This document shows, one piece after another, positions 12,431 to 27,337 of a DNA stretch of 27,357 bases. Below the pieces are notes generated by a model that was not told the DNA's origin, did not search any database, and saw nothing but the letters and a program-made list of their open reading frames with translations. The DNA lies in the UHGV virus genome UHGV-0082481; one strand, given 5' to 3'. This DNA is from a virus. Numbering within the stretch: the stretch's first letter is position 1; each line of letters opens with the position of its first letter. The position numbers and the translations under genes were made by a program.

Positions 12431-14197
12431 ATGAACACCACACTGACACCCGCAGATCTCGATCCCCGTCGGCAGGCCATGCTGCTGTACTTTCAGGGAT
12501 ACCGCGTAGCCCGCATTGCTGAAATGCTGGGCGAGAAAGTTGCAACCGTTCACAGCTGGAAAAAACGCGACAAGTGGGGTGACTATGGGCCGCTGGATCA
12601 GATGCAGCTCACCACCGCCGCACGCTACTGCCAGCTCATTATGAAGGAGCACAAAGAAGGGAAAGATTTCAAAGAGATTGACCTGCTGGCGCGCCAGTCG
12701 GAGCGCCATGCGCGGATCGGCAAGTTTAACAATGGCGGCAACGAAGCCGACTTAAACCCTAACGTCGCCAACCGCAACAAAGGCCCGCGCCGTCAGCCGG
12801 AAAAGAACGTTTTCACCGATGAACAGATTGAGAAGTTGGAAGAAATCTTCCATTCCTCCATGTTCAACTACCAGCGCCACTGGTGGGAAGCCGGAAAAAC
12901 CAACCGCATCCGCAACCTGCTGAAGTCACGCCAGATCGGCGCGACCTTCTATTTTGCCCGTGAAGCCCTGATTGACGCCCTGCTAACCGGGCGTAACCAG
13001 ATTTTCCTTTCCGCCAGCAAGGCTCAGGCCCACGTCTTTAAGCAGTACATCATCGACTTCGCCAAAGAAGTGGAGGTGGAGCTGAAAGGCGATCCGATGG
13101 TGCTTCCTAACGGGGCCACGCTGTACTTCCTCGGCACCAATGCCCGCACGGCCCAGAGTTACCACGGCAACTTGTATCTGGATGAATATTTCTGGATACC
13201 GAAATTCCAGGAGCTGCGCAAAGTGGCTTCCGGTATGGCTATTCACAAAAAATGGCGACAAACCTATTTTTCCACGCCATCCAGCCTGACACACAGTGCT
13301 TATCCGTTCTGGTCCGGTGCGCTGTTCAACCGAGGGCGCAACAAAGCCGATAAGGTGGACATCGACCTGTCCCACAGCAATCTGGCCCCCGGCCTGCTGT
13401 GCGCAGACGGGCAGTACCGCCAGATAGTCACTGTGGAAGATGCGGTGCGCGGCGGCTGTAACCTGTTCGACCTCGACCAGTTGCGCATGGAGTACAGCCC
13501 GGACGAATACCAGAACCTGCTGATGTGTGAGTTCGTGGACGATCTCGCGTCTGTGTTCCCACTCAGCGAGCTGCAGGCGTGCATGGTGGACAGTTGGGAA
13601 GTCTGGACCGACTTTCATGCACTGGCCCTGCGCCCGTTTGGCTGGCACGAAGTGTGGATCGGATATGACCCGGCGAAAGGTACGCAGAACGGCGACAGCG
13701 CCGGATGCGTGGTGGTGGCGCCGCCAGCCGTGCCGGGCGGTAAGTTCCGCATTCTTGAGCGTCACCAGTGGCGCGGAATGGACTTCCGCGCCCAGGCTGA
13801 CGCCATCAAAAAACTGACCGAACAGTACAACGTGACCTATATCGGTATCGACTCAACCGGCGTTGGTCACGGGGTTTACGAGAACGTGAAAGCGTTTTTT
13901 CCTGCCGTCCGGGAGTTTGTCTACAACCCCAACGTTAAAAACGCCCTGGTACTCAAGGCCTACGACATTATCAGCCACCGCCGTCTGGAGTTTGACGCCG
14001 GACACACCGACATAGCGCAGTCCTTTATGGCAATCCGTCGCGCCACCACCGCCAGTGGCAACCGCCCGACCTATGAAGCCAGCCGCAGCGAAGAAGCCAG
14101 CCACGCCGATCTGGCCTGGGCAACGATGCACGCACTGTTTAACGAACCGCTGCAGGGCGAATCCGCCAATACCAGCAATATTGTGGAGATTTTTTGA
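12431..14197 (+). CDS. P: Terminase large (ATPase) subunit (P2 gpP-like)
   Basis: 588-aa ORF, divergent from O and followed by the portal gene with ATGA overlap, as in P2. Confidence 0.9.
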   Translation: MNTTLTPADLDPRRQAMLLYFQGYRVARIAEMLGEKVATVHSWKKRDKWGDYGPLDQMQLTTAARYCQLIMKEHKEGKDFKEIDLLARQSERHARIGKFNNGGNEADLNPNVANRNKGPRRQPEKNVFTDEQIEKLEEIFHSSMFNYQRHWWEAGKTNRIRNLLKSRQIGATFYFAREALIDALLTGRNQIFLSASKAQAHVFKQYIIDFAKEVEVELKGDPMVLPNGATLYFLGTNARTAQSYHGNLYLDEYFWIPKFQELRKVASGMAIHKKWRQTYFSTPSSLTHSAYPFWSGALFNRGRNKADKVDIDLSHSNLAPGLLCADGQYRQIVTVEDAVRGGCNLFDLDQLRMEYSPDEYQNLLMCEFVDDLASVFPLSELQACMVDSWEVWTDFHALALRPFGWHEVWIGYDPAKGTQNGDSAGCVVVAPPAVPGGKFRILERHQWRGMDFRAQADAIKKLTEQYNVTYIGIDSTGVGHGVYENVKAFFPAVREFVYNPNVKNALVLKAYDIISHRRLEFDAGHTDIAQSFMAIRRATTASGNRPTYEASRSEEASHADLAWATMHALFNEPLQGESANTSNIVEIF

Positions 14198-15228
14198 TGG
14201 GAAAGAGTAAGAAGAACCGCGCTGCGGCGACGAAACAGATCCAGCTTAAAAGTCAAACTACAGCCGAAGCATTCAGCTTCGGCGATCCCGTTCCTGTTCT
14301 GGACCGCCGAGAACTGCTGGATTATGTGGAATGCGTACAGATGGACCGTTGGTATGAGCCGCCCGTCAGCTTTGACGGACTGGCGCGCACCTTCCGCGCC
14401 GCCGTGCATCACAGTTCCCCGATTGCAGTAAAGTGCAACATTCTGACCAGTACCTATATCCCTCATCCGCTGCTCAGCCAGCAGGCTTTTTCGCGTTTTG
14501 TGCAGGACTATCTGGTATTTGGTAACGCCTACCTGGAGAAACGCACGAACCGATTCGGTGAAGTTATCGCTCTTGAGCCTGCGCTTGCAAAATACACCCG
14601 ACGCGGATTAGACCTGGATACCTACTGGTTTATGCAATACGGTATGACAACCCAGCCGTATCAGTTCACGAAAGGCAGCATTTTTCATCTGATGGAACCG
14701 GATATTAATCAGGAGATCTACGGCCTGCCCGGCTATCTTTCTGCCATCCCATCCGCTTTGCTCAACGAGTCCGCCACGCTGTTCCGCCGCAAGTATTACA
14801 TTAACGGCAGTCATGCAGGCTTCATCATGTACATGACCGATGCGGCGCAGAACCAGGAGGATGTGAACAACCTCCGCAACGCGATGAAAAGCGCCAAAGG
14901 TCCAGGCAATTTCCGCAACCTGTTTATGTACTCACCTAATGGCAAAAAGGATGGGCTTCAGATCATTCCTCTGTCAGAAGTTGCGGCGAAGGATGAGTTT
15001 CTGAATATCAAAAATGTCAGCCGCGATGACATGATGGCTGCGCACCGCGTACCACCGCAAATGATGGGGATTATACCTAATAATGTTGGAGGATTTGGGG
15101 ATGTGGAAAAGGCTAGCTGTGTGTTTGTGAGGAATGAGCTAATACCATTACAGGAAAGAATAAAAGGATTAAATAGTTGGTCTAATGAGAATATAATCCA
15201 ATTCAAACCGTATACACTTGAATTCTAA
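14194..15228 (+). CDS. Q: Portal protein (P2 gpQ-like)
   Basis: 344-aa ORF, same length as P2 gpQ, immediately after P. Confidence 0.9.
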   Translation: MMGKSKKNRAAATKQIQLKSQTTAEAFSFGDPVPVLDRRELLDYVECVQMDRWYEPPVSFDGLARTFRAAVHHSSPIAVKCNILTSTYIPHPLLSQQAFSRFVQDYLVFGNAYLEKRTNRFGEVIALEPALAKYTRRGLDLDTYWFMQYGMTTQPYQFTKGSIFHLMEPDINQEIYGLPGYLSAIPSALLNESATLFRRKYYINGSHAGFIMYMTDAAQNQEDVNNLRNAMKSAKGPGNFRNLFMYSPNGKKDGLQIIPLSEVAAKDEFLNIKNVSRDDMMAAHRVPPQMMGIIPNNVGGFGDVEKASCVFVRNELIPLQERIKGLNSWSNENIIQFKPYTLEF

Positions 15229-15276: not shown

Positions 15277-16545
15277 TTAATTTGGCAACTCCAAATCATC
15301 CTTTAGATCTTTGATATCTTGATGTTGCAACCATATTAGGAAGCCTTTATCAACAACATTCAGTTTCCTATTTGTTTGGTCATAATCCAAAATAATAGGC
15401 ATTATATTTTTCTTTATTTGCAAAGACGCCGTTGATTGTAACGACTGAGTAACATTACCCAGGTTTAACTTCTCCCCTCTTGGATGTACACTTTGTAATA
15501 TTGCCCTTATATCTTTAAATTTCAAACCTAATTCAAGTTCACTAATGGTTGATGAAAGGACAGGATATAAAATCCATTTATGCATTTGAAGTTCAGTATC
15601 TTGAAATCCATCTGAAAAATTAATAAGGAAAGAATTGTAACGAGCCGATTGGTCATTAACAATTTTTGCAATGATATCCTTTCCATCCAAACCAGCTCCA
15701 ATAGTTCTTTTTGTTTGCTGAGTCTCTGATATTCCGCATTCAATACACGCACGCCTACATGCTTCTTGCACTAAATAAATACTATTGAGACAGTGTGTTA
15801 CTACATCTGCTTTGAAAGTTGGATCAAAATCAATGTTAAGGAGTAAACCTCCTTTATCAATTGCCATCTCCAGTTCAGAATCTTGCCATTTGTCTGCGTT
15901 AACAGAAATAATCCTGCCAGTTAAGTCACCATTGTAAACAATGAGCCGATTATCTTCTAGCCAAACTCCAACAATTACAAAAATAATGCTTGATGTTTCA
16001 TGAAAGGCTTTTAATGCGATCGAAAAATCTCTTTGAGTTTCGAAAGGCATATAATGAAAATCCTCAAGAACGATAATCTTCTTGAAATTTATAGATTTTA
16101 AAGCCGCTATAACATCATTAACATCATCAACATCAATTTCTAAAGGCGCGGTTACTTGTTCATGAGATTTCGTATCTTCGATCTCGCCTCCGGCACTCGC
16201 CACAAAACCCAAAATAGAAGTTTTTATTGATGCGATTATTTTATTTTTCCCCGTAATACCTTTCTTGGTAGACTGAGTTATTTCGAATCCAGCTCTTTTT
16301 AAAATACTTGCATTCAATTCAGATACATCAGAACGATTCGAACACTGCACCAAAATATAATCATCAGAATTAATACAGTGTTTTCTTACGCAAGTCTTAC
16401 CCTGCTTTGAACTGCCGTAAATAACAATATGTTTCTTTGCTTGTAATTCCTGTTTAAGTTTGAAATCAACATCAGGTCTTTCAATGTAATTAAGTGGCAA
16501 ATCTCTTGAGAGCCCAAAGATATCATTCGTATCAAAAATTTCCAT
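15277..16545 (-). CDS. P-loop ATPase of unknown function (accessory/moron gene)
   Basis: 422-aa ORF, strongly AT-rich; Walker A GSSKQGKT and Walker B-like KIIVLEDFH; convergent with Q, lying between the portal gene and the candidate cos/accessory region. Confidence 0.7.
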   Translation of the reverse strand: MEIFDTNDIFGLSRDLPLNYIERPDVDFKLKQELQAKKHIVIYGSSKQGKTCVRKHCINSDDYILVQCSNRSDVSELNASILKRAGFEITQSTKKGITGKNKIIASIKTSILGFVASAGGEIEDTKSHEQVTAPLEIDVDDVNDVIAALKSINFKKIIVLEDFHYMPFETQRDFSIALKAFHETSSIIFVIVGVWLEDNRLIVYNGDLTGRIISVNADKWQDSELEMAIDKGGLLLNIDFDPTFKADVVTHCLNSIYLVQEACRRACIECGISETQQTKRTIGAGLDGKDIIAKIVNDQSARYNSFLINFSDGFQDTELQMHKWILYPVLSSTISELELGLKFKDIRAILQSVHPRGEKLNLGNVTQSLQSTASLQIKKNIMPIILDYDQTNRKLNVVDKGFLIWLQHQDIKDLKDDLELPN

Positions 16546-17021: not shown

Positions 17022-17447
17022 ATGAAAAGCTTTTACGTATTAATTTTAATTCTGGTTGCAAGCTTTGTTAGCGTCCCAGTTCAGGCGGTAACAGCTAAAA
17101 ACTATGAGAAAGGAACTAAAGCTCAACAGAAATCAATATCTTACCTTTCATGTGCATTCTATGGCAGTAGCACACAATTAGATCCTAGCTACACGGGGCA
17201 AGTACCTACAGCCGATATCAAGATATTACAGAAAGCAGCTTACCACGCTTACAACGATGCGCTCTCATACTTTGGCTATGAGGAACCAGATCACGAACAA
17301 CGCATAATTGATTATGCTGAATTTGTGGCGTCGCAAGAAGCTGTGTTATGGGATAAGCCGGGAATGAATGGAAAGCAGGTAACACTAATTGCTCGTTCTC
17401 TCTACAATGAGAGTAACTGTAACTTGTTACTGGACTCAATTAAGTAG
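17022..17447 (+). CDS. Small secreted protein of unknown function (accessory gene)
   Basis: 141-aa ORF with a typical signal peptide (MKSFYVLILILVASFVSVPVQA), GAGG about 8 nt upstream of the ATG, AT-rich; opposite in orientation to the flanking phage genes. Confidence 0.6.
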   Translation: MKSFYVLILILVASFVSVPVQAVTAKNYEKGTKAQQKSISYLSCAFYGSSTQLDPSYTGQVPTADIKILQKAAYHAYNDALSYFGYEEPDHEQRIIDYAEFVASQEAVLWDKPGMNGKQVTLIARSLYNESNCNLLLDSIK

Positions 17448-17606: not shown

Positions 17607-17840
17607 TTAATGCAGCCAGCTGTCGTCTTCCCACACCTTCTGCATAATTTTCATCACTTGTTTTCTTTCTTCGTCCAGTTGCAGTCCGGTCAGTTCCACA
17701 CCGTTAGAGCTACCTTTGCGGATGCGAATTACCGTTTTGGGATACAGGGGGCGCAGATTGCGGTAAAGCTCTGATTCAAGGGCGTCCAGGGTAGACTGGC
17801 TAATCTTCTGCTCTTTATCGATCATTATTTCAATGCGCAT
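17607..17840 (-). CDS. DinI-family protein (186 Tum C-terminal-like; possible SOS antirepressor component)
   Basis: ORF 17607-17912; start at the internal Met (17840) gives a 77-aa protein MRIEIMIDKEQ...KVWEDDSWLH that parallels E. coli DinI (MRIEVTIAK...ETWESADDWFVSE); GAGGTG RBS upstream; downstream of a LexA box. Confidence 0.7.
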   Translation of the reverse strand: MRIEIMIDKEQKISQSTLDALESELYRNLRPLYPKTVIRIRKGSSNGVELTGLQLDEERKQVMKIMQKVWEDDSWLH

Positions 17841-17850
17841 AAAAGTCACC

Positions 17851-18039
17851 TCAACTGATGACATCCATTGAGCGGTTGTATTCGTGAGTTCTGATTTTTG
17901 CCATGAGTTCATCAGTCAACTCAGAAACCCACTGCAGAGCCAGCCCCTTCTCTTCATCACTACACTCACTAGCCGCTACAAGCTTAAGAAAAAAATCAAT
18001 GCGCTGGAGCTTCAAAGACTCCAAAAAATAGTCCTGCAT
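17851..18039 (-). CDS. Small protein, first ORF of the LexA-controlled operon
   Basis: ORF 17851-18138; plausible start at the internal Met (18039, MQDYFLESLKLQRIDFF...) with GGAGG upstream, about 40 nt below the LexA box; ends 10 nt before the DinI-like start in a different frame. Confidence 0.4.
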   Translation of the reverse strand: MQDYFLESLKLQRIDFFLKLVAASECSDEEKGLALQWVSELTDELMAKIRTHEYNRSMDVIS

Positions 18040-18077
18040 CTTTCCTCCTATGACACCAAAAATACTGTATATACAAT

Positions 18078-18097
18078 CACTGTTTATATTTACAGTA
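18078..18097. promoter_or_regulatory. LexA (SOS) box
   Basis: caCTGTttatatttACAGta fits the CTGT-N8-ACAG consensus with an AT-rich spacer; an overlapping half-site TACTGTATATA lies just upstream (18063-18073). Confidence 0.7.
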
Positions 18098-18189
18098 TAT
18101 AATAATCTTACTGATGTAAAACGTTTTTTTACGTTCATCAGCCTGATATGCCTGGTATTATTAAGAGCACGAATTGTTAACCCGCGTAA

Positions 18190-20604
18190 TTAATACAGCT
18201 CCCGCCACTTATCATCTTCCTGCAAACGCTGGTTCCGATAGAAGATACGCAGGCCTGCTCCTGACGGAATACTGCCGCCGCGAAGGAGTAAATCGACTTC
18301 TTTCTCGCTGCCATCAAATCCTCTGGACTTCAGTTCATAGACGAGCTGCTGTCGCTGATGGTCTGTAATTCGCTGTTTGTAGTCTTTACGCCGTTTCGGT
18401 TTCACCAGGCGTAACCTTGCAGCCAGTTCCCGGCGCTCTTTTTTGCTCATACTGTGCAGGTAATCGTGCAACTCCTTGTCATCCATGCGGGTGATATCCG
18501 TTCTGGTATCTCCATCAGCTGATTTGTCTTTCCCTTGTTGGTACAAATTTTCAGCAAGGGGACAGTTATTGCCACGAGTCCAAGGGGCGCAAGCGCCCTG
18601 GTCGGCTGCCGCCTCCTGAACGTCAACGGCCTTACGAACCATTTTCCACTTCACGGCATGAGTGCAGATTTTGCCCTCTGCAATGGGTGACCAGATGCCA
18701 TAAATACGAATGCCGTGATCGCCATAGGCGGTCGGCTCTTCGTTGATTTCATAAGCGGTTCTGATGAGGTGATATTTACGGGGAACCAGTACGCCGCCCT
18801 GCTTCATGATGTAGGTGGCAAAACAACCAGCATCAGCTGCAGCCAGAATGGCATCAAGGCGCGGGTTATCCAGTACCGGCGCACCTGCTTTTTTGTCACC
18901 CTGTTGCCTTGCCGCCTGACCAGCCAGCAATCGCAGTTCACGGTAAGCCTGACGCCCCGGAATGCCAAAGAAGCGGAATTGCTGAACACGATGCAGAGAC
19001 GCCCAGGCATTAACGTATTCAGCGTTATCACGCAGAGATTTACCCGTTTCCTTGCTGATCTCGCCAGCCAGACCACGCCCGTCAATGTTCTTACTGATGT
19101 ATTTCGCGATGTAGCTAGTCGGCGTTCCTTTGCGCGGGTTTATCAGCTCAGACTTAAAGCGTGGCCCCGTGTTATTACCCAGCTCCTCGCGGTCTTCACG
19201 GATAGCAAACTTACGCAACAATGCAGTAATGGCGCGGCGGTCTTTTTTGCGCATGAAACACAACAGGTGCCAGTGAACTGTGCCGTCATGATGCGGCTCA
19301 GCCACCCGCACGCCATACCAGCGCAACCCGGCTTTGTGCATCGCCTTACGAAATGCAGCAAACATGCCGACCAGATAATCGCTGCTTTGTCTTACCGTCG
19401 CGTTTGTCCAGGTCGGGTTTGGTCTGCCGTTATTTAGCGTGGAATGGAAACGCGACGGACAGGTGATAGTGTAGAAAACGGCGCAGTCACCGCGCATTTC
19501 CGCGATAAGCTCCAGACCTTTAACACAGGCCATCATCTCATTGCGGCGATGCGCAGGGTTGCTGCTGCTGGCGTTTACCACATCCTCCATGTCCAGCGTG
19601 TCGCCGTCTTCGTTCACCAGTTCATGAGAACGGAAAAACTCCAGCGACTTACGGCGCTGCTCACGTTTATGCATCACGGCTTCATAGCTGACATAAGGAG
19701 ATGCTTTTTTGCTGACCAGGCAAACAGCGCGCAACTGCTCTTCCCGCCATTCGCAACGCATCTTCCATAATTTCCGATACCACCAGTCGGCGCACAACAT
19801 ACGCGCCAGCGAACCCGGAATGAGTTCATAGGGCACGGGTTTACGGCGGTTTCTTTTCCGACGGAGTTGCTCAAACGCAGGTGGGATGACATCCAGACGC
19901 AGGGTTTCCGCTGCCACCTTTTCCCATGTCTTGCGGATTTCTTCTGGCTTAACGTCATCGGTGGCATACAAATCACCACAAGCTGCATCAAGGCACATAC
20001 TCATATGCGCAGCTACCAGGGTGGATAGGCGTTTCACCTGATCCTGACTCATTTCAGGCAGGATCAGCAGACCGTCCAGCCCTTCATGGCTTGCCATAAA
20101 GCGAAAAGAAGTGGATAGCTGACTGTCGCGTACATGCTCCAGTCGTTCCAGACATGGCTTAATCGTCTCACGCAAATAGCGGGAATAAGCCTTTGGCCTG
20201 CCCAGGCTGCTGAAGTATTCAATACGTTGCATCAGCGGCTTGCTGATATGGGAAGGCTGGGCGTTGACGTCCGCCAGAATGACCATATCCGGATTAAAAC
20301 GCTGCTGCTCATGCGCCAGCTTTGCCCGACTAATGAGCTTATCCTGTTCCATTTCGCGCTGGACAGGATCACGGGATTCATTAAAGAAATAACGCTCCCA
20401 GACCTGATCACTCAGCGCCTCACGGCGCAGCTGTTCCTGCTCGTTATCGGCAGCGTACAGAGTGATCAGGTTTGAAAGCGCAGAAACCGGCGCAACTTCC
20501 GCCGGGTCCAGATAAGGGTTAATGGCCTTTTTCGGGCTGTTCCATGAGAATGCTGCGGCGACCTCGTTAAAGCCGCTGCAGTTGTTCATATCAGCATGGC
20601 TCAT
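18190..20604 (-). CDS. A: Replication initiation protein (P2 gpA-like rolling-circle endonuclease)
   Basis: 804-aa ORF, size and position as for gpA, last large gene of the early operon. Confidence 0.85.
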
Positions 20605-22745: not shown

Positions 22746-23255
22746 TCACAGCAAACCGAATGAAGCACCGAGGCCAGTCACGGTATCAACTGCACTCGCC
22801 ATCGCAGGGTTAGCCTGTAAACGGGCCTGCAATGAAACAGCAGCCAACGCCATCAGTCGTGTTACAGAGTTAATGCTGCTGATGGCATCACGACGACCTG
22901 CACTGGTTTTTACATCGCCAGATACCGCACCTGCAGCAACACGCCCGATCTCTGCGGTTGCACTCATGACGTAATGTGGCAGTTTCTCTTTTGCCACCTC
23001 ATTAATCGGTACACATGGCAGACAATGAATCTGTGCCAGAAAACCGTCTACCAGCGTTGAATCTTCAGTCAGATCGGTAAGCAGCCAGATTTCTGGTGCG
23101 GTTAATAAATGAGGTTGAGCTGGGTTCAGTTTGTTCCGCAGAATCTGCACATTCATGCCTGCACGTTCTGCCAGTTGCACCAGGTTGTGGCGCAGTGCGA
23201 ATGCACGACAGGCTTCATCAAAATGTGGATGTTTGGAAACTTGGTAATCAAACAT
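22746..23255 (-). CDS. cII: CII-like transcriptional activator (phage 186 CII family)
   Basis: ORF 22746-23309; start at internal Met (23255) with GGAG RBS gives 169 aa, [24 protein letters not shown]..., matching my recollection of 186 CII in length and N-terminus; sits after the Apl-like gene as in 186. Confidence 0.65.
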
Positions 23256-23287
23256 AGTCGACACTCCTGATGCACCCCAAAATGGAA

Positions 23288-23509
23288 CTAGTTGAATACA
23301 ACATTGCAATCAGTAAGTGCATCAACGGTAAGAGCAGCAAGGTTGATCATTACCTTTTCTCTTTTCTTGTCTTTCCGAAGGCGATGGCGAGGGATGCGAC
23401 CATCAGCCAGCATATCGTTGATGGTGTCGATAGAAAGACCAGTAAGTTCGCTATAACGCTCAATTGTGACGTGTGGCGTATTCAGAGTTATTGAAATGTT
23501 AGGGGTCAT
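23288..23509 (-). CDS. apl: Apl/Cox-like excisionase and lytic-switch regulator
   Basis: ORF 23288-23590; start at internal Met (23509, [10 protein letters not shown]...) with AAGGAG RBS gives a 73-aa HTH-like protein, first gene of the rightward early operon, divergent from the repressor. Confidence 0.6.
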
Positions 23510-23597: not shown

Positions 23598-24542
23598 ATG
23601 TCAACTCAAAAATTCACATTTCGCCATATGGATGACGATATGAAAGCCGTTGTCATACAAAATCGTGGTGGTCAGAAAGTAATCGAACGGATACTCATGG
23701 CTTATGGCTTCAAGTCACGCCAAGCATTCTGTAACCATCTAGGTATTTCCCAAAGCACGATGGCTAACAGATATGCCCGCGATACATTTCCTGCAGATTG
23801 GATTGTTATCTGCTCACTGGAAACAGGAGCATCAATTAAATGGCTAGCATTTGGTTCAGATGATGACGAACAAATGCCATCCCCTTCACCAGAACAGCAT
23901 GTTGAAACACACTCCGAAGATGGTTCTTATCATGATGTTCACTATAAACAACCAAAGTTCGACAATGAAAACATCATTGATTATTCTCGGGGTGGCAAGG
24001 AAGCAATAGAGCGAATTGTTAGGGCTTACGGTTATAAGACTCGCCAAGCCTTAGCTGATCACTTAGGTATTTCAAAAAGCACATTAGCCACAAGATATAT
24101 GCGTGATGTTTTTCCTTCAGACTGGATAATTAAGTGCGCTCTCGAAACGGGTACTTCACTAATGTGGCTAACTACTGGTAAAGGCCCAAAGTTTGACGAT
24201 GCAAGAAATGATGTAATTGCTATTACTCACAAAAAAATTACTGACGGGAATCTATTTGATTCAAATTTCTATATGCTTGATAAAGCGTTACTACCAGACT
24301 CAATCCAATTACCATTGATTGTTAGCACCGAAAAAAAAACCTACCTATGTAATCAATCATTCGATGAAATTACAGATGGTAAATGGATTGTTAAAATAGA
24401 AGGGAAAGTGAGCATTCGAACCCTAACTAGAATACCTGTAGGAAGATTAAAAATTTCAGACAATGATTTATCATTTGAATGTAAAATTTCAGATATTGAT
24501 GTTATTGCAAAATGCAAATTTATTCTGATAGAAGAATTATAA
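23598..24542 (+). CDS. cI: Immunity repressor, 186 CI-type, with tandemly duplicated N-terminal DNA-binding domain
   Basis: 314-aa ORF divergent from apl/cII; two copies of a CI-type HTH module (IERILMAYGFKSRQAFCNHLGISQSTMANRYARDTFPADWIVICSLETGASIKWL and IERIVRAYGYKTRQALADHLGISKSTLATRYMRDVFPSDWIIKCALETGTSLMWL) plus a ~120-aa C-terminal domain; AT-rich. Confidence 0.75.
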   Translation: MSTQKFTFRHMDDDMKAVVIQNRGGQKVIERILMAYGFKSRQAFCNHLGISQSTMANRYARDTFPADWIVICSLETGASIKWLAFGSDDDEQMPSPSPEQHVETHSEDGSYHDVHYKQPKFDNENIIDYSRGGKEAIERIVRAYGYKTRQALADHLGISKSTLATRYMRDVFPSDWIIKCALETGTSLMWLTTGKGPKFDDARNDVIAITHKKITDGNLFDSNFYMLDKALLPDSIQLPLIVSTEKKTYLCNQSFDEITDGKWIVKIEGKVSIRTLTRIPVGRLKISDNDLSFECKISDIDVIAKCKFILIEEL

Positions 24543-25613: not shown

Positions 25614-26666
25614 ATGGCAGTACGAAAACTCACCACAGGAAAATGGCTTTGCGAATGTTACCCCGCCGGACGTAGTGGGCGTCGTGTGCGTAAACAATTC
25701 GCCACCAAAGGCGAAGCACTGGCTTTTGAGCGTCACACGATGGAAGAAACCGAAGCAAAGCCCTGGCTGGGTGAATCAGTGGATCGTCGAACACTGAAAG
25801 ACGTGGTTGAGCTATGGTTCAAACTACATGGTAAATCTCTGACAGCTGGGCAGCATGTCTATGACAAATTGCTGTTGATAGTTGACGCTCTGGGCAATCC
25901 CCTTGCAACCGATCTCACATCTAAAATGTTTGCCCACTATCGAGATAAACGCCTGACAGGTGAGATCTATTTCAGCGAGAAATGGAAAAAAGGAGCAAGC
26001 CCGGTCACTATTAACCTGGAGCAAAGCTATCTAAGTAGTGTTTTTAGCGAACTATCCCGCCTGGGCGAATGGTCGCATCCGAACCCACTGGAGAACATGC
26101 GAAAATTCACTATCGCAGAAAAAGAGATGGCATGGCTTACCCATGAGCAGATTGTTGAATTGCTGGCTGATTGCAAACGTCAGGACCCAATTCTGGCACT
26201 GGTAGTTAAGATATGCTTAAGCACAGGCGCACGCTGGCGTGAAGCCGTAAATCTTACCCGCTCACAGGTGACTAAATACCGAATTACCTTTGTCAGAACG
26301 AAGGGGAAGAAAAACAGAAGCATCCCTATCAGTAAAGAGCTTTACGAAGAGATCATGGCGCTTGATGGGTTCAATTTCTTTACAGACTGCTATTTTCAAT
26401 TTTTATCCGTGATGGAAAAAACGTCTATCGTGCTCCCTCGCGGTCAACTCACACACGTTCTGCGCCATACGTTTGCGGCGCACTTCATGATGTCGGGTGG
26501 AAACATCCTGGCCTTACAAAAAATTCTCGGACATCACGATATAAAAATGACGATGCGTTACGCACATCTGGCACCGGATCATCTGGAAACGGCGCTCCGT
26601 TTCAATCCTCTGGCAACGCTGCCAAGTGGCGACAAAGTGGCGGCAGCGGTTGGCATTACCCCGTAA
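25614..26666 (+). CDS. int: Tyrosine integrase (P2/186 family)
   Basis: 350-aa ORF; N-terminus MAVRKLTTGKWLCECYPAGRSGRRVRKQFATKGEA typical of P2-family integrases; C-terminal catalytic region HVLRHTFAAHFMMSGGNILALQKILGHHDIKMTMRYAHL with the conserved Arg/His/Tyr residues. Confidence 0.9.
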   Translation: MAVRKLTTGKWLCECYPAGRSGRRVRKQFATKGEALAFERHTMEETEAKPWLGESVDRRTLKDVVELWFKLHGKSLTAGQHVYDKLLLIVDALGNPLATDLTSKMFAHYRDKRLTGEIYFSEKWKKGASPVTINLEQSYLSSVFSELSRLGEWSHPNPLENMRKFTIAEKEMAWLTHEQIVELLADCKRQDPILALVVKICLSTGARWREAVNLTRSQVTKYRITFVRTKGKKNRSIPISKELYEEIMALDGFNFFTDCYFQFLSVMEKTSIVLPRGQLTHVLRHTFAAHFMMSGGNILALQKILGHHDIKMTMRYAHLAPDHLETALRFNPLATLPSGDKVAAAVGITP

Positions 26667-26770: not shown

Positions 26771-27337
26771 CTACCCTGCAACCCTCTCAACCATCCTCAA
26801 AATCTCCTCGCGCGATAGCGGCTTACGGTCGGTGACAAAATGCAGCGTCATCCCCTCAATAAACGCATCAAGCGCGCGGGCGGTTCCGGGTTCAAACCAT
26901 TGTTCGAGCGTTTGCTGACTGCGCTGCATCCAGTTTTGCATTACCGTTTTTAATAGCGGTTTTCGGCTAGCCAGCGCGTAGAGCTGGTACATCAGCTCCA
27001 TGTTATCCGGCGTTGCAACCTGTGAGCTGTAGATCATATCGGTGATAGCCTGGCATGCGCCCGGAGCATCACTAACATCGCTAAAAAATGCCTGATATTG
27101 CCGGGACATGATCTCAGTAAAACTGCTGAACGCCTCCAGTAACAACTCATCAATTCCTGAAAAATAGTAGGTCATCGATCCCAACGGTACCCCGGCAAGG
27201 GTAGCAATTTTGCGGTGCGTAACAGCATGTATTCCGTAAAGTTTCACCGCCTCCAGCGTGGCCTGGATAATTTTTTCTCGCCGTTGCGGATCGTTAGCGC
27301 GACGCATGTCATTTCCTCTCTCTGCAATTGTGTACAA
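26771..27337 (-). CDS. TetR-family transcriptional regulator (probably host chromosomal flank)
   Basis: 188-aa ORF with N-terminal TetR-type HTH ([40 protein letters not shown]); convergent with the integrase; composition unlike the AT-rich phage accessory genes. Confidence 0.8.

Follow-up and report, generated by a model that had tools for sequence, protein, structure and literature searches.

We wondered how a prophage whose repressor carries no recognisable self-cleavage domain might be woken by DNA damage, when the locus expected to do so appears to be split into two open reading frames (ORFs). The locus in question lies on the minus strand of a 27,357-bp stretch of viral DNA, which was analysed as a whole and is referred to here as the window. 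[quoted passage not shown] Its gene content identifies the window as a prophage of the P2/186-like kind (Peduoviridae) that carries a 186-type switch. The landmarks of this prophage are as follows.

18190-20604, minus strand: gene A, encoding a Phage_GPA replication protein of 804 aa (profile search, E 1.4e-127)
22746-23309, minus strand: the CII gene (PF06892)
23598..24542, plus strand: CI, a 186-type immunity repressor of 314 aa with two Phage_CI_repr HTH domains (E 5.2e-58) and a Phage_CI_C domain (2e-31)
25614-26666: the integrase gene, which completes the 186-like switch with CI and CII

A host rcdA-like gene is found at the window edge. In a domain search, the CI of the window gave no match to Peptidase_S24, the domain responsible for self-cleavage. 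This CI (23598..24542) is presumed to be the target of TumA, the product of the upstream ORF of the locus. The locus itself, tum, is situated directly 3' of gene A on the same strand, and the order gene A to tum is common to 186, PSP3, Fels-2 and E. coli HS. The placement proposed in the initial annotation, with the same position and orientation as 186 tum behind the Phage_GPA gene, was thus confirmed. Read along the minus strand, the end of gene A is followed by a stem-loop, a LexA box, the motif AGGAGG, tumA, the motif GAGGTG and tumB. The region between gene A and tumA contains the following elements.

18110..18142, minus strand: stem-loop between the gene A stop codon and the tum promoter (-12 kcal/mol, z = -4.1)
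18115..18120, minus strand: hexamer TTTACA, read from the sequence as the putative -35 of the tum promoter; TACTGT follows after 17 nt
18097..18092, minus strand: putative -10 hexamer TACTGT, the first six bases of the LexA box
18078..18097, minus strand: predicted LexA operator (SOS box) TACTGTAAATATAAACAGTG, a 20-mer with 3 mismatches to the consensus TACTGTATATATATACAGTA
18063..18082, minus strand: putative, degenerate second LexA-like 20-mer CAGTGATTGTATATACAGTA, with 5 mismatches and the left core GTGA instead of CTGT

The near-consensus LexA box that had been noticed upstream of the 62-aa ORF stands out clearly. It is the single match to the consensus 20-mer with at most 3 mismatches in the 27,357-bp window, and none of 100 shuffled sequences contained such a match. 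The looser pattern CTGT-N8-ACAG also occurs once in the window (18080-18095), against an expectation of 0.25 and an occurrence in 25 of 100 shuffles. Exactly 40 nt separate this core from the ATG of tumA. In 13 of 15 related phages, a strict box precedes the homologous gene at the corresponding position, and it is kept even in the distant 186, PSP3, ESSI2_ev015 and YenM_06.16-2, where the flanking DNA can no longer be aligned. The 186 record labels the homologous site as a LexA binding site.

A generic scan for consensus promoters reported no sigma-70 promoter on the minus strand, and the hexamers TTTACA and TACTGT are therefore assigned purely by analogy with p95 of phage 186. [quoted passage not shown] Unlike the window, 186 possesses a single LexA box placed 20 nt from the start codon. 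The second LexA-like 20-mer of the window overlaps the first box by 5 nt; its flanks (CAGTG...TACAGT) are kept across the Fels-2 group and its centre is variable. As to the stem-loop, none of 200 shuffled sequences folded equally well as RNA, its sequence is kept in the E. coli HS and Fels-2 loci, and its 3' arm overlaps the putative -35. It may serve as a terminator or insulator of the early operon. Palindromes of an analogous kind precede the LexA-controlled loci of the Gifsy prophages (Lemire et al., PMC3121763).

Downstream of the box the two ORFs are arranged as separate cistrons.

18044..18049, minus strand: Shine-Dalgarno sequence AGGAGG of tumA, 4 nt before the ATG and invariant in all close relatives
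17851..18039, minus strand: tumA (ORF1), 62 aa (MQDYF...DVIS), with ATG at 18039-18037 and the stop codon TGA at 17853-17851
17847..17852, minus strand: Shine-Dalgarno sequence GAGGTG of tumB, overlapping the stop codon of tumA
17607..17840, minus strand: tumB (ORF2), 77 aa, with ATG at 17840-17838 and the stop codon at 17609-17607

The two halves are not joined in one ORF of about 146 aa: the cistrons are separated by a stop codon and a gap of 10 nt, and tumB is read in frame +1 relative to tumA. All elements listed in the initial annotation are present, and its coordinates required small corrections only, namely the start of ORF1 (18039) and the frame of ORF2 (+1). A weak 6-bp hairpin (17845-17862) spans the Shine-Dalgarno sequence of tumB and is no better than chance. 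At the far end of the locus, DNA homology with Fels-2 and E. coli HS stops at the stop codon of tumB. No canonical intrinsic terminator was found after tumB; a strong stem-loop without a U-run is present there, in non-homologous cargo DNA.

We then asked what the two ORFs encode. The downstream one, described as a member of the DinI family, is indeed one: it matches Pfam DinI (PF06183) with E 6.6e-23 and 81.3 bits (cut-off 24.2) over profile positions 1-63 of 63. Like the chromosomal DinI of E. coli, which belongs to the same Pfam family, it carries the C-terminal acidic W-E-D/E-x-S-W end. However, it reaches only 42.7 bits against the NCBIfam DinI equivalog NF007893, whose cut-off is 111, and by this measure TumB is a phage paralogue and not an orthologue of host DinI. 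Among phage proteins, ORF2 is 100% identical to STM2726.1 of Fels-2, 78% identical to TumB of PSP3 and 42% identical to the GTG-initiated truncated Tum of 186. With residues 71-145 of 186 Tum, the part that 186 also translates separately, it shares 41% identity (E 3e-24). Family membership argues that TumB probably tunes the SOS signal by acting on RecA filaments; most likely it is not itself the inducer.

ORF1 was more difficult to place. It gave no match in Pfam, NCBIfam, PADLOC or the PDB. AlphaFold2 models the protein as a hairpin of two helices (2-23 and 28-61, pLDDT 90) with a conserved cysteine in the turn; a Foldseek comparison of this model with the PDB returned generic helical hairpins only and 0 matches at E <= 0.001. 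TumA is acidic (pI 4.6), as are TumA of PSP3 and the N-terminal half of 186 Tum. ORF1 is 98% identical to Fels-2 STM2728, identical at 61 of 62 positions to ECHS_RS04495 of E. coli HS and about 22% identical to PSP3 TumA.

The initial annotation had called for both ORFs to be aligned with 186 Tum and had named a lack of resemblance between the upstream ORF and the N-terminal half of Tum as an argument against its reading. ORF2 aligns readily, as described above, whereas BLASTP produced no alignment of ORF1 with 186 Tum. A resemblance emerges, narrowly, at the level of profiles. ORF1 belongs to the family phrog_698 (E 3.6e-38) and additionally matches phrog_8554 (2.4e-8) and phrog_1993 (2e-3); residues 1-70 of 186 Tum match the same three families in a different order of strength, namely phrog_1993 (2e-23), phrog_8554 (3.3e-12) and phrog_698 (6.7e-6). 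These matches involve the same profile columns in register. Direct comparison of the two families by hhalign paired columns 4-43 with columns 4-43 without gaps (P 0.0013), at a probability of just 18% because both alignments are shallow. Aligned jointly, the family members need no gaps across about 60 residues, and E7, L20, C26, A34 and E40 are invariant. Given the negative BLASTP result and the low hhalign probability, homology between ORF1 and 186 Tum rests on profiles, synteny and size, and we regard ORF1 as related to the N-terminal half of 186 Tum at the profile level only. Read in this way, tumA encodes the SOS antirepressor.

The naming of the two genes in databases points in the opposite direction. 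The 62-aa gene, which we identify as the Tum antirepressor, appears as a 'hypothetical protein' in RefSeq as well as in the majority of phage records, and names related to SOS tend to go to the DinI-like gene instead. It might accordingly be argued that the DinI-like ORF2 is the inducing factor and ORF1 an unrelated small protein or a leader peptide: a recognised SOS-related domain is found in ORF2 only, and ORF1 lacks a match in Pfam, NCBIfam and the PDB. We consider this highly unlikely. Apart from the profile homology of ORF1 with the N-terminal half of 186 Tum, some relatives possess TumA without any DinI protein, and antirepressor activity of PSP3 is carried by the upstream gene (PMC3121763; PSP3 annotation). 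In the Gifsy prophages, non-polar deletions of dinI had no significant effect on induction (PMC3121763). Finally, the gene whose deletion abolishes induction of the prophage DuoHS is the 62-aa one.

The latter result comes from the Phollow study, in which 'tum' (ECHS_RS04495) was deleted from the E. coli HS prophage DuoHS (PhiECO1). Deletion of tum or a lexA(Ind-) allele encoding non-cleavable LexA abolishes mitomycin C-induced lysis as well as virion formation (PMC12055606). According to the E. coli HS record, ECHS_RS04495 is the 62-aa gene adjoining the DinI-like ECHS_RS04500, not the DinI-like gene itself. No complementation of the tum deletion was found in the parts of the study consulted (PMC12055606); the deletion probably did not act through polarity on tumB. 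The locus DNA of the window is about 97% identical to the DuoHS and Fels-2 loci. Together with the alignment of ORF2 to Tum, this supports the proposed induction module of the Tum/DinI type under SOS/LexA control. For homologues that are 98-100% identical, those of DuoHS, experiments have shown that induction depends on LexA and requires the 62-aa gene, and a requirement of TumA for induction has been shown in both DuoHS and PSP3. As the DuoHS work covered both a deletion of the 62-aa tum and lexA(Ind-), the induction and LexA experiments that the initial annotation had suggested have essentially already been done on a near-identical locus.

Comparison with the known systems places the locus precisely. 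DuoHS resembles the window in the position after gene A, the LexA box, the ribosome-binding sites, the 10-nt junction and the integration next to rcdA. It differs in its CI, which has 189 aa and one HTH domain and a C-terminal domain 34% identical to that of the 314-aa, two-HTH CI of the window, and in the cargo genes downstream of tumB. Fels-2 of Salmonella Typhimurium LT2 (STM2728/STM2726.1) shares TumA (98%), TumB (100%), the promoter and the junction. Unlike the window, which has a convergent unrelated ORF after tumB, Fels-2 carries the orf97-sized STM2726 (243 aa) there on the same strand, and its CI is of another type, that of the closely related RE2010 being only 36% identical. Bunny et al. 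2002 is said to be the original description of the split tum of Fels-2 and reportedly found lexA null mutations to be lethal in LT2 because of Fels-2. That tum is split in two in Fels-2 as well as in PSP3, and that 186 Tum looks like a fusion of an antirepressor with DinI, was noted by Lemire et al. (PMC3121763, with the fusion raised in the Discussion).

PSP3 similarly has gene A followed by a LexA box and an operon of two cistrons, and its CI has two HTH domains. Its record annotates tumA (60 aa) as 'similar to 5' end 186 tum; UV induction of prophage' and tumB (77 aa) as 'similar to dinI and 3' end of 186 tum'. In contrast to the window, PSP3 tumB is in the same frame as tumA, with TAG and 3 nt between them, and its TumA is only distantly similar, at the level of identity given above.

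In 186, too, an antirepressor part is followed by a DinI part, and the DinI part is also made alone: the 186 record lists four start codons for tum, the last of which, the GTG of codon 71, is served by a separate Shine-Dalgarno sequence, and the DinI-only product is annotated as 'truncated Tum - modulates SOS induction of 186 prophage'. The CI inactivated by Tum in 186 belongs to the same family as the CI of the window. What sets 186 apart is a single fused Tum of 146 aa and orf97 as the next gene in the operon. The dinI-gfoA/gftA loci of Gifsy-1/2/3 resemble the window in combining a LexA box, a DinI homologue and a small antirepressor against a non-cleavable repressor in one SOS operon (PMC3121763), but they belong to lambdoid phages, have dinI first and use unrelated antirepressor and repressor families.

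These comparisons assign the locus to the Tum-type SOS antirepressor operons, in the two-gene form of PSP3, Fels-2 and DuoHS; the one feature absent from it is the fused polypeptide peculiar to 186. The architecture is already known, and its function is known experimentally through near-identical homologues. The initial annotation was correct in describing two out-of-frame ORFs. The oddness implied by calling the module 'split' did not hold up, as the split is the native, published tumA/tumB arrangement, not a defect, and is also the commoner architecture.

A different view would be that a 186-type tum was broken by a frameshift, leaving a decaying pseudogene and a non-inducible prophage. The ORFs are out of frame, and a one-base deletion anywhere in 17854-17915 would yield a fusion of 143 aa, close to the 146 aa of 186 Tum; stand-alone proteins of the 186 Tum-N type with frameshifted-looking tails also exist. 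Decay, however, is hard to reconcile with the substitution pattern. In pairwise comparisons with relatives, dN/dS is 0-0.09 (tumA) and 0.05-0.09 (tumB) at dS values of up to about 1-2, and both cistrons are under strong purifying selection. In addition, a separate ribosome-binding site precedes each ORF, and the DuoHS locus, which is almost identical, is functional.

Prevalence leads to the same result. Among the Fels-2-type loci that we compared, from phages and prophages alike, all 11 showed the two-gene form. Of 5426 complete E. coli genomes, 1126 contain the locus, and two genes are annotated in all of the best matches listed. Moreover, a profile built from TumA and 186-type Tum-N proteins was searched against 1.84 billion cluster representatives and retrieved 152 relatives at E <= 0.001. 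Of 150 Tum-N-like representatives listed, 121 are at most 80 aa long and only 3 carry a DinI part. In ESSI2_ev015 and YenM_06.16-2, a TumA-like gene stands behind a LexA box without a DinI partner. The lengths of the representatives and these DinI-less phages indicate that the stand-alone antirepressor is the rule and the fused Tum of 186 the exception. By dN/dS and prevalence, the pseudogene explanation is effectively refuted, and we give it next to no credence.

An intact locus could nevertheless produce a fused protein, and we considered programmed +1 frameshifting or transcriptional slippage, for instance at the A5 run 17895-17899, with a TumA-TumB fusion as the real antirepressor. The reading frame of tumB continues without a stop for 25 codons 5' of its ATG, into the 3' end of tumA; the A5 run falls into this overlap, and 186 makes full-length and truncated products. 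Yet it is nothing out of the ordinary for an alternative frame to remain open over 25 codons. The A5 run is the sole homopolymer in 17854-17915, five A's are short for slippage, and a canonical frameshift signal is absent. Furthermore, tumB has its own Shine-Dalgarno sequence and ATG, and the TumA-like genes of ESSI2_ev015 and YenM_06.16-2 have no DinI partner to be fused to.

A further argument comes from the junction. It is identical in eight loci with at least 98% identical TumA, except for the last tumA codon (agt/agc/aat). Among relatives at large, the gap between tumA and tumB measures 3, 10, 11 or 13 nt, the stop codon is TGA, TAG or TAA, and tumB is in frame 0 behind the stop codon (PSP3), +1 or +2; each cistron keeps its own Shine-Dalgarno sequence throughout. 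No single conserved mechanism would operate across such differences in frame, gap and stop codon. Fusion by frameshifting or slippage was rejected on these grounds, and the variation in relative frame in particular makes programmed frameshifting extremely improbable. Regarding the fusing change that the initial annotation had envisaged near 17841-17853, a one-base deletion would indeed join the ORFs, albeit in 17854-17915, and neither a slippery site nor recoding is needed. The fused and split architectures are one mutation apart, and nothing suggests a fusion at the RNA or protein level.

We therefore return to two independently translated cistrons. The box, the two cistrons, the family assignments and the 186-type switch are directly visible in the DNA. 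We have high confidence that tumA and tumB form an intact bicistronic operon under LexA repression in a P2-like (Peduoviridae) prophage of the Fels-2/DuoHS type, and that it would work as follows. In the lysogen, LexA would occupy the SOS box overlapping the -10 of a promoter just downstream of gene A. DNA damage would activate RecA, LexA would cleave itself and the operon would be transcribed. TumA, the predicted acidic helical hairpin of 62 aa, would bind the 186-type CI, which lacks a self-cleavage domain, and keep it off its operators; the early lytic promoter would then fire and the prophage would excise and replicate. TumB, made from its own ribosome-binding site, would tune the SOS signal through RecA filaments without being the inducer. 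In 186, Tum acts as an anti-CI factor that inhibits or sequesters CI and whose amount must exceed CI production (PMC7708051). By analogy with this biochemistry, TumA may sequester CI reversibly. The pairing of TumA with the CI of this prophage is putative, as the CI of the window differs from those of DuoHS, Fels-2 and PSP3.

A separate observation concerns the relation between antirepressor and repressor. Prophages of E. coli, Salmonella and Klebsiella possess a nearly invariant TumA (98-100% identical). Phages with a TumA 98-100% identical to ORF1 nonetheless have a CI only 36-57% identical to that of the window, with CII and A at 82-100%, and the CIs paired with the same TumA have one or two HTH domains. 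Split by domain, phages with a TumA of the phrog_698 type show 25-35% identity to the window in the C-terminal 100 residues of CI and 51-94% in the HTH domain, where they share the motif STMANR...RD.FPADW. ESSI2_ev015 and YenM_06.16-2, which have other Tum types, show 44-46% in the C-terminal 100 residues and 40-46% in the HTH domain, and the motif is absent. Written out for the phrog_698-type group, the common HTH motif is S-K/Q-S-T-M/L-A-N/T-R...R-D-x-F-P-A/S-D/E-W. By these domain-wise identities, the type of antirepressor follows the DNA-binding domain of CI and not its C-terminal domain, as a raw correlation among about 16 related, mosaic genomes with kinship ignored.

Tracking of the HTH domain fits an antirepressor that blocks operator binding, and the co-variation leads us to infer that TumA targets the N-terminal HTH domain of CI. 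It also suggests that TumA is able to act on several CI types. One could go further and speculate that TumA is a 'master key' that docks on a conserved face of the HTH domain, such that the SOS signal of one prophage could induce Fels-2-like co-residents with other repressors; we regard this as possible but somewhat doubtful. If true, swapping the immunity region would need no co-evolution of the antirepressor. That one TumA is found with very different CIs and tracks their HTH domain may be new.

The locus leaves the current understanding of SOS induction in 186-like phages unchanged. The module that decides whether the prophage is woken by DNA damage, for example upon exposure to fluoroquinolones or mitomycin C, is found in about one fifth of complete E. 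coli genomes. Prophage waking in turn matters for the spread of adjoining cargo, which in this prophage includes a candidate defence gene.

The region upstream of tumA, the first open reading frame of the split tum module, carries two further elements:

18063-18082, minus strand: degenerate second LexA-like 20-mer, CAGTGATTGTATATACAGTA, with 5 mismatches
18110-18142, minus strand: stable hairpin (-12 kcal/mol, z -4.1)

The second LexA-like 20-mer has the left core GTGA and overlaps the first LexA box by 5 nt; across the Fels-2 group its centre is variable while its flanks are kept. The hairpin is placed between the stop codon of the replication gene A and the tum promoter, with the putative -35 element partly inside its 3' arm, and it is kept in E. 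coli HS as well as in Fels-2.

Beyond the other end of the module we found two genes:

15277-16545, minus strand: AAA-like protein of 422 aa, PADLOC match PDC-S59
17022-17447, plus strand: ORF of 141 aa, signal-peptide-like segment at the N-terminus

In PADLOC, the AAA-like protein hits PDC-S59, a candidate defence family, with an E value of 4.8e-72. Its gene sits in a variable cargo hotspot located between the portal gene Q (14194-15228) and tumB, the DinI-family ORF. In relatives this place is taken by different cargo: AIPR, TIR, a retron effector, a Hypoth_Ymh gene, or RloB together with an ATPase. Searches of Pfam, NCBIfam and PADLOC gave no match for the 141-aa ORF, which is convergent with tumB. 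As the sequence shared with Fels-2 and E. coli HS stops directly after the tumB stop codon, this ORF is part of the cargo region.

On the lysogeny and integration side the following features were identified:

23598-24542, plus strand: CI repressor, 314 aa
24555-25532, plus strand: 325-aa ORF in the slot between cI and int
26771-27337, minus strand: rcdA (ybjK)-like TetR-family host gene, on the integrase side

In CI, the CI_C domain is preceded by a tandem pair of Phage_CI_repr HTH domains, which span roughly residues 24-90 and 132-198 and share 59% identity. The same duplicated HTH architecture is present in the CI of PSP3 (286 aa) and in that of Klebsiella phage 4LV2017, a 313-aa protein with 57% identity to the CI described here, whereas the CIs of 186, Fels-2-like phages and E. 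coli HS have a single HTH domain. Phage 4LV2017 also carries a 349-aa hypothetical gene where the 325-aa ORF is found. Family searches with the latter gave sub-threshold matches only, and it may represent a lysogen-expressed accessory or exclusion gene. Its product appears coiled-coil-rich, with two hydrophobic segments. DuoHS, the prophage of E. coli HS, likewise lies in the rcdA (ybjK) neighbourhood.

TumA-like genes also occur without a DinI-like partner:

L013 (ESSI2_ev015 locus), 1635-1847: TumA-like gene, LexA box upstream
L014 (YenM_06.16-2 locus), 2632-2814: TumA-like gene, LexA box upstream

Operons of this kind can therefore do without the DinI module. Four further stand-alone proteins (P0147, P0178, P0223 and P0240) are close to the N-terminal half of 186 Tum, and their unrelated tails begin just past the conserved 'FSVVF' segment. 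They look as if fused tum genes had been split by repeated frameshifts, and fusion-to-split transitions of tum may be recurrent.
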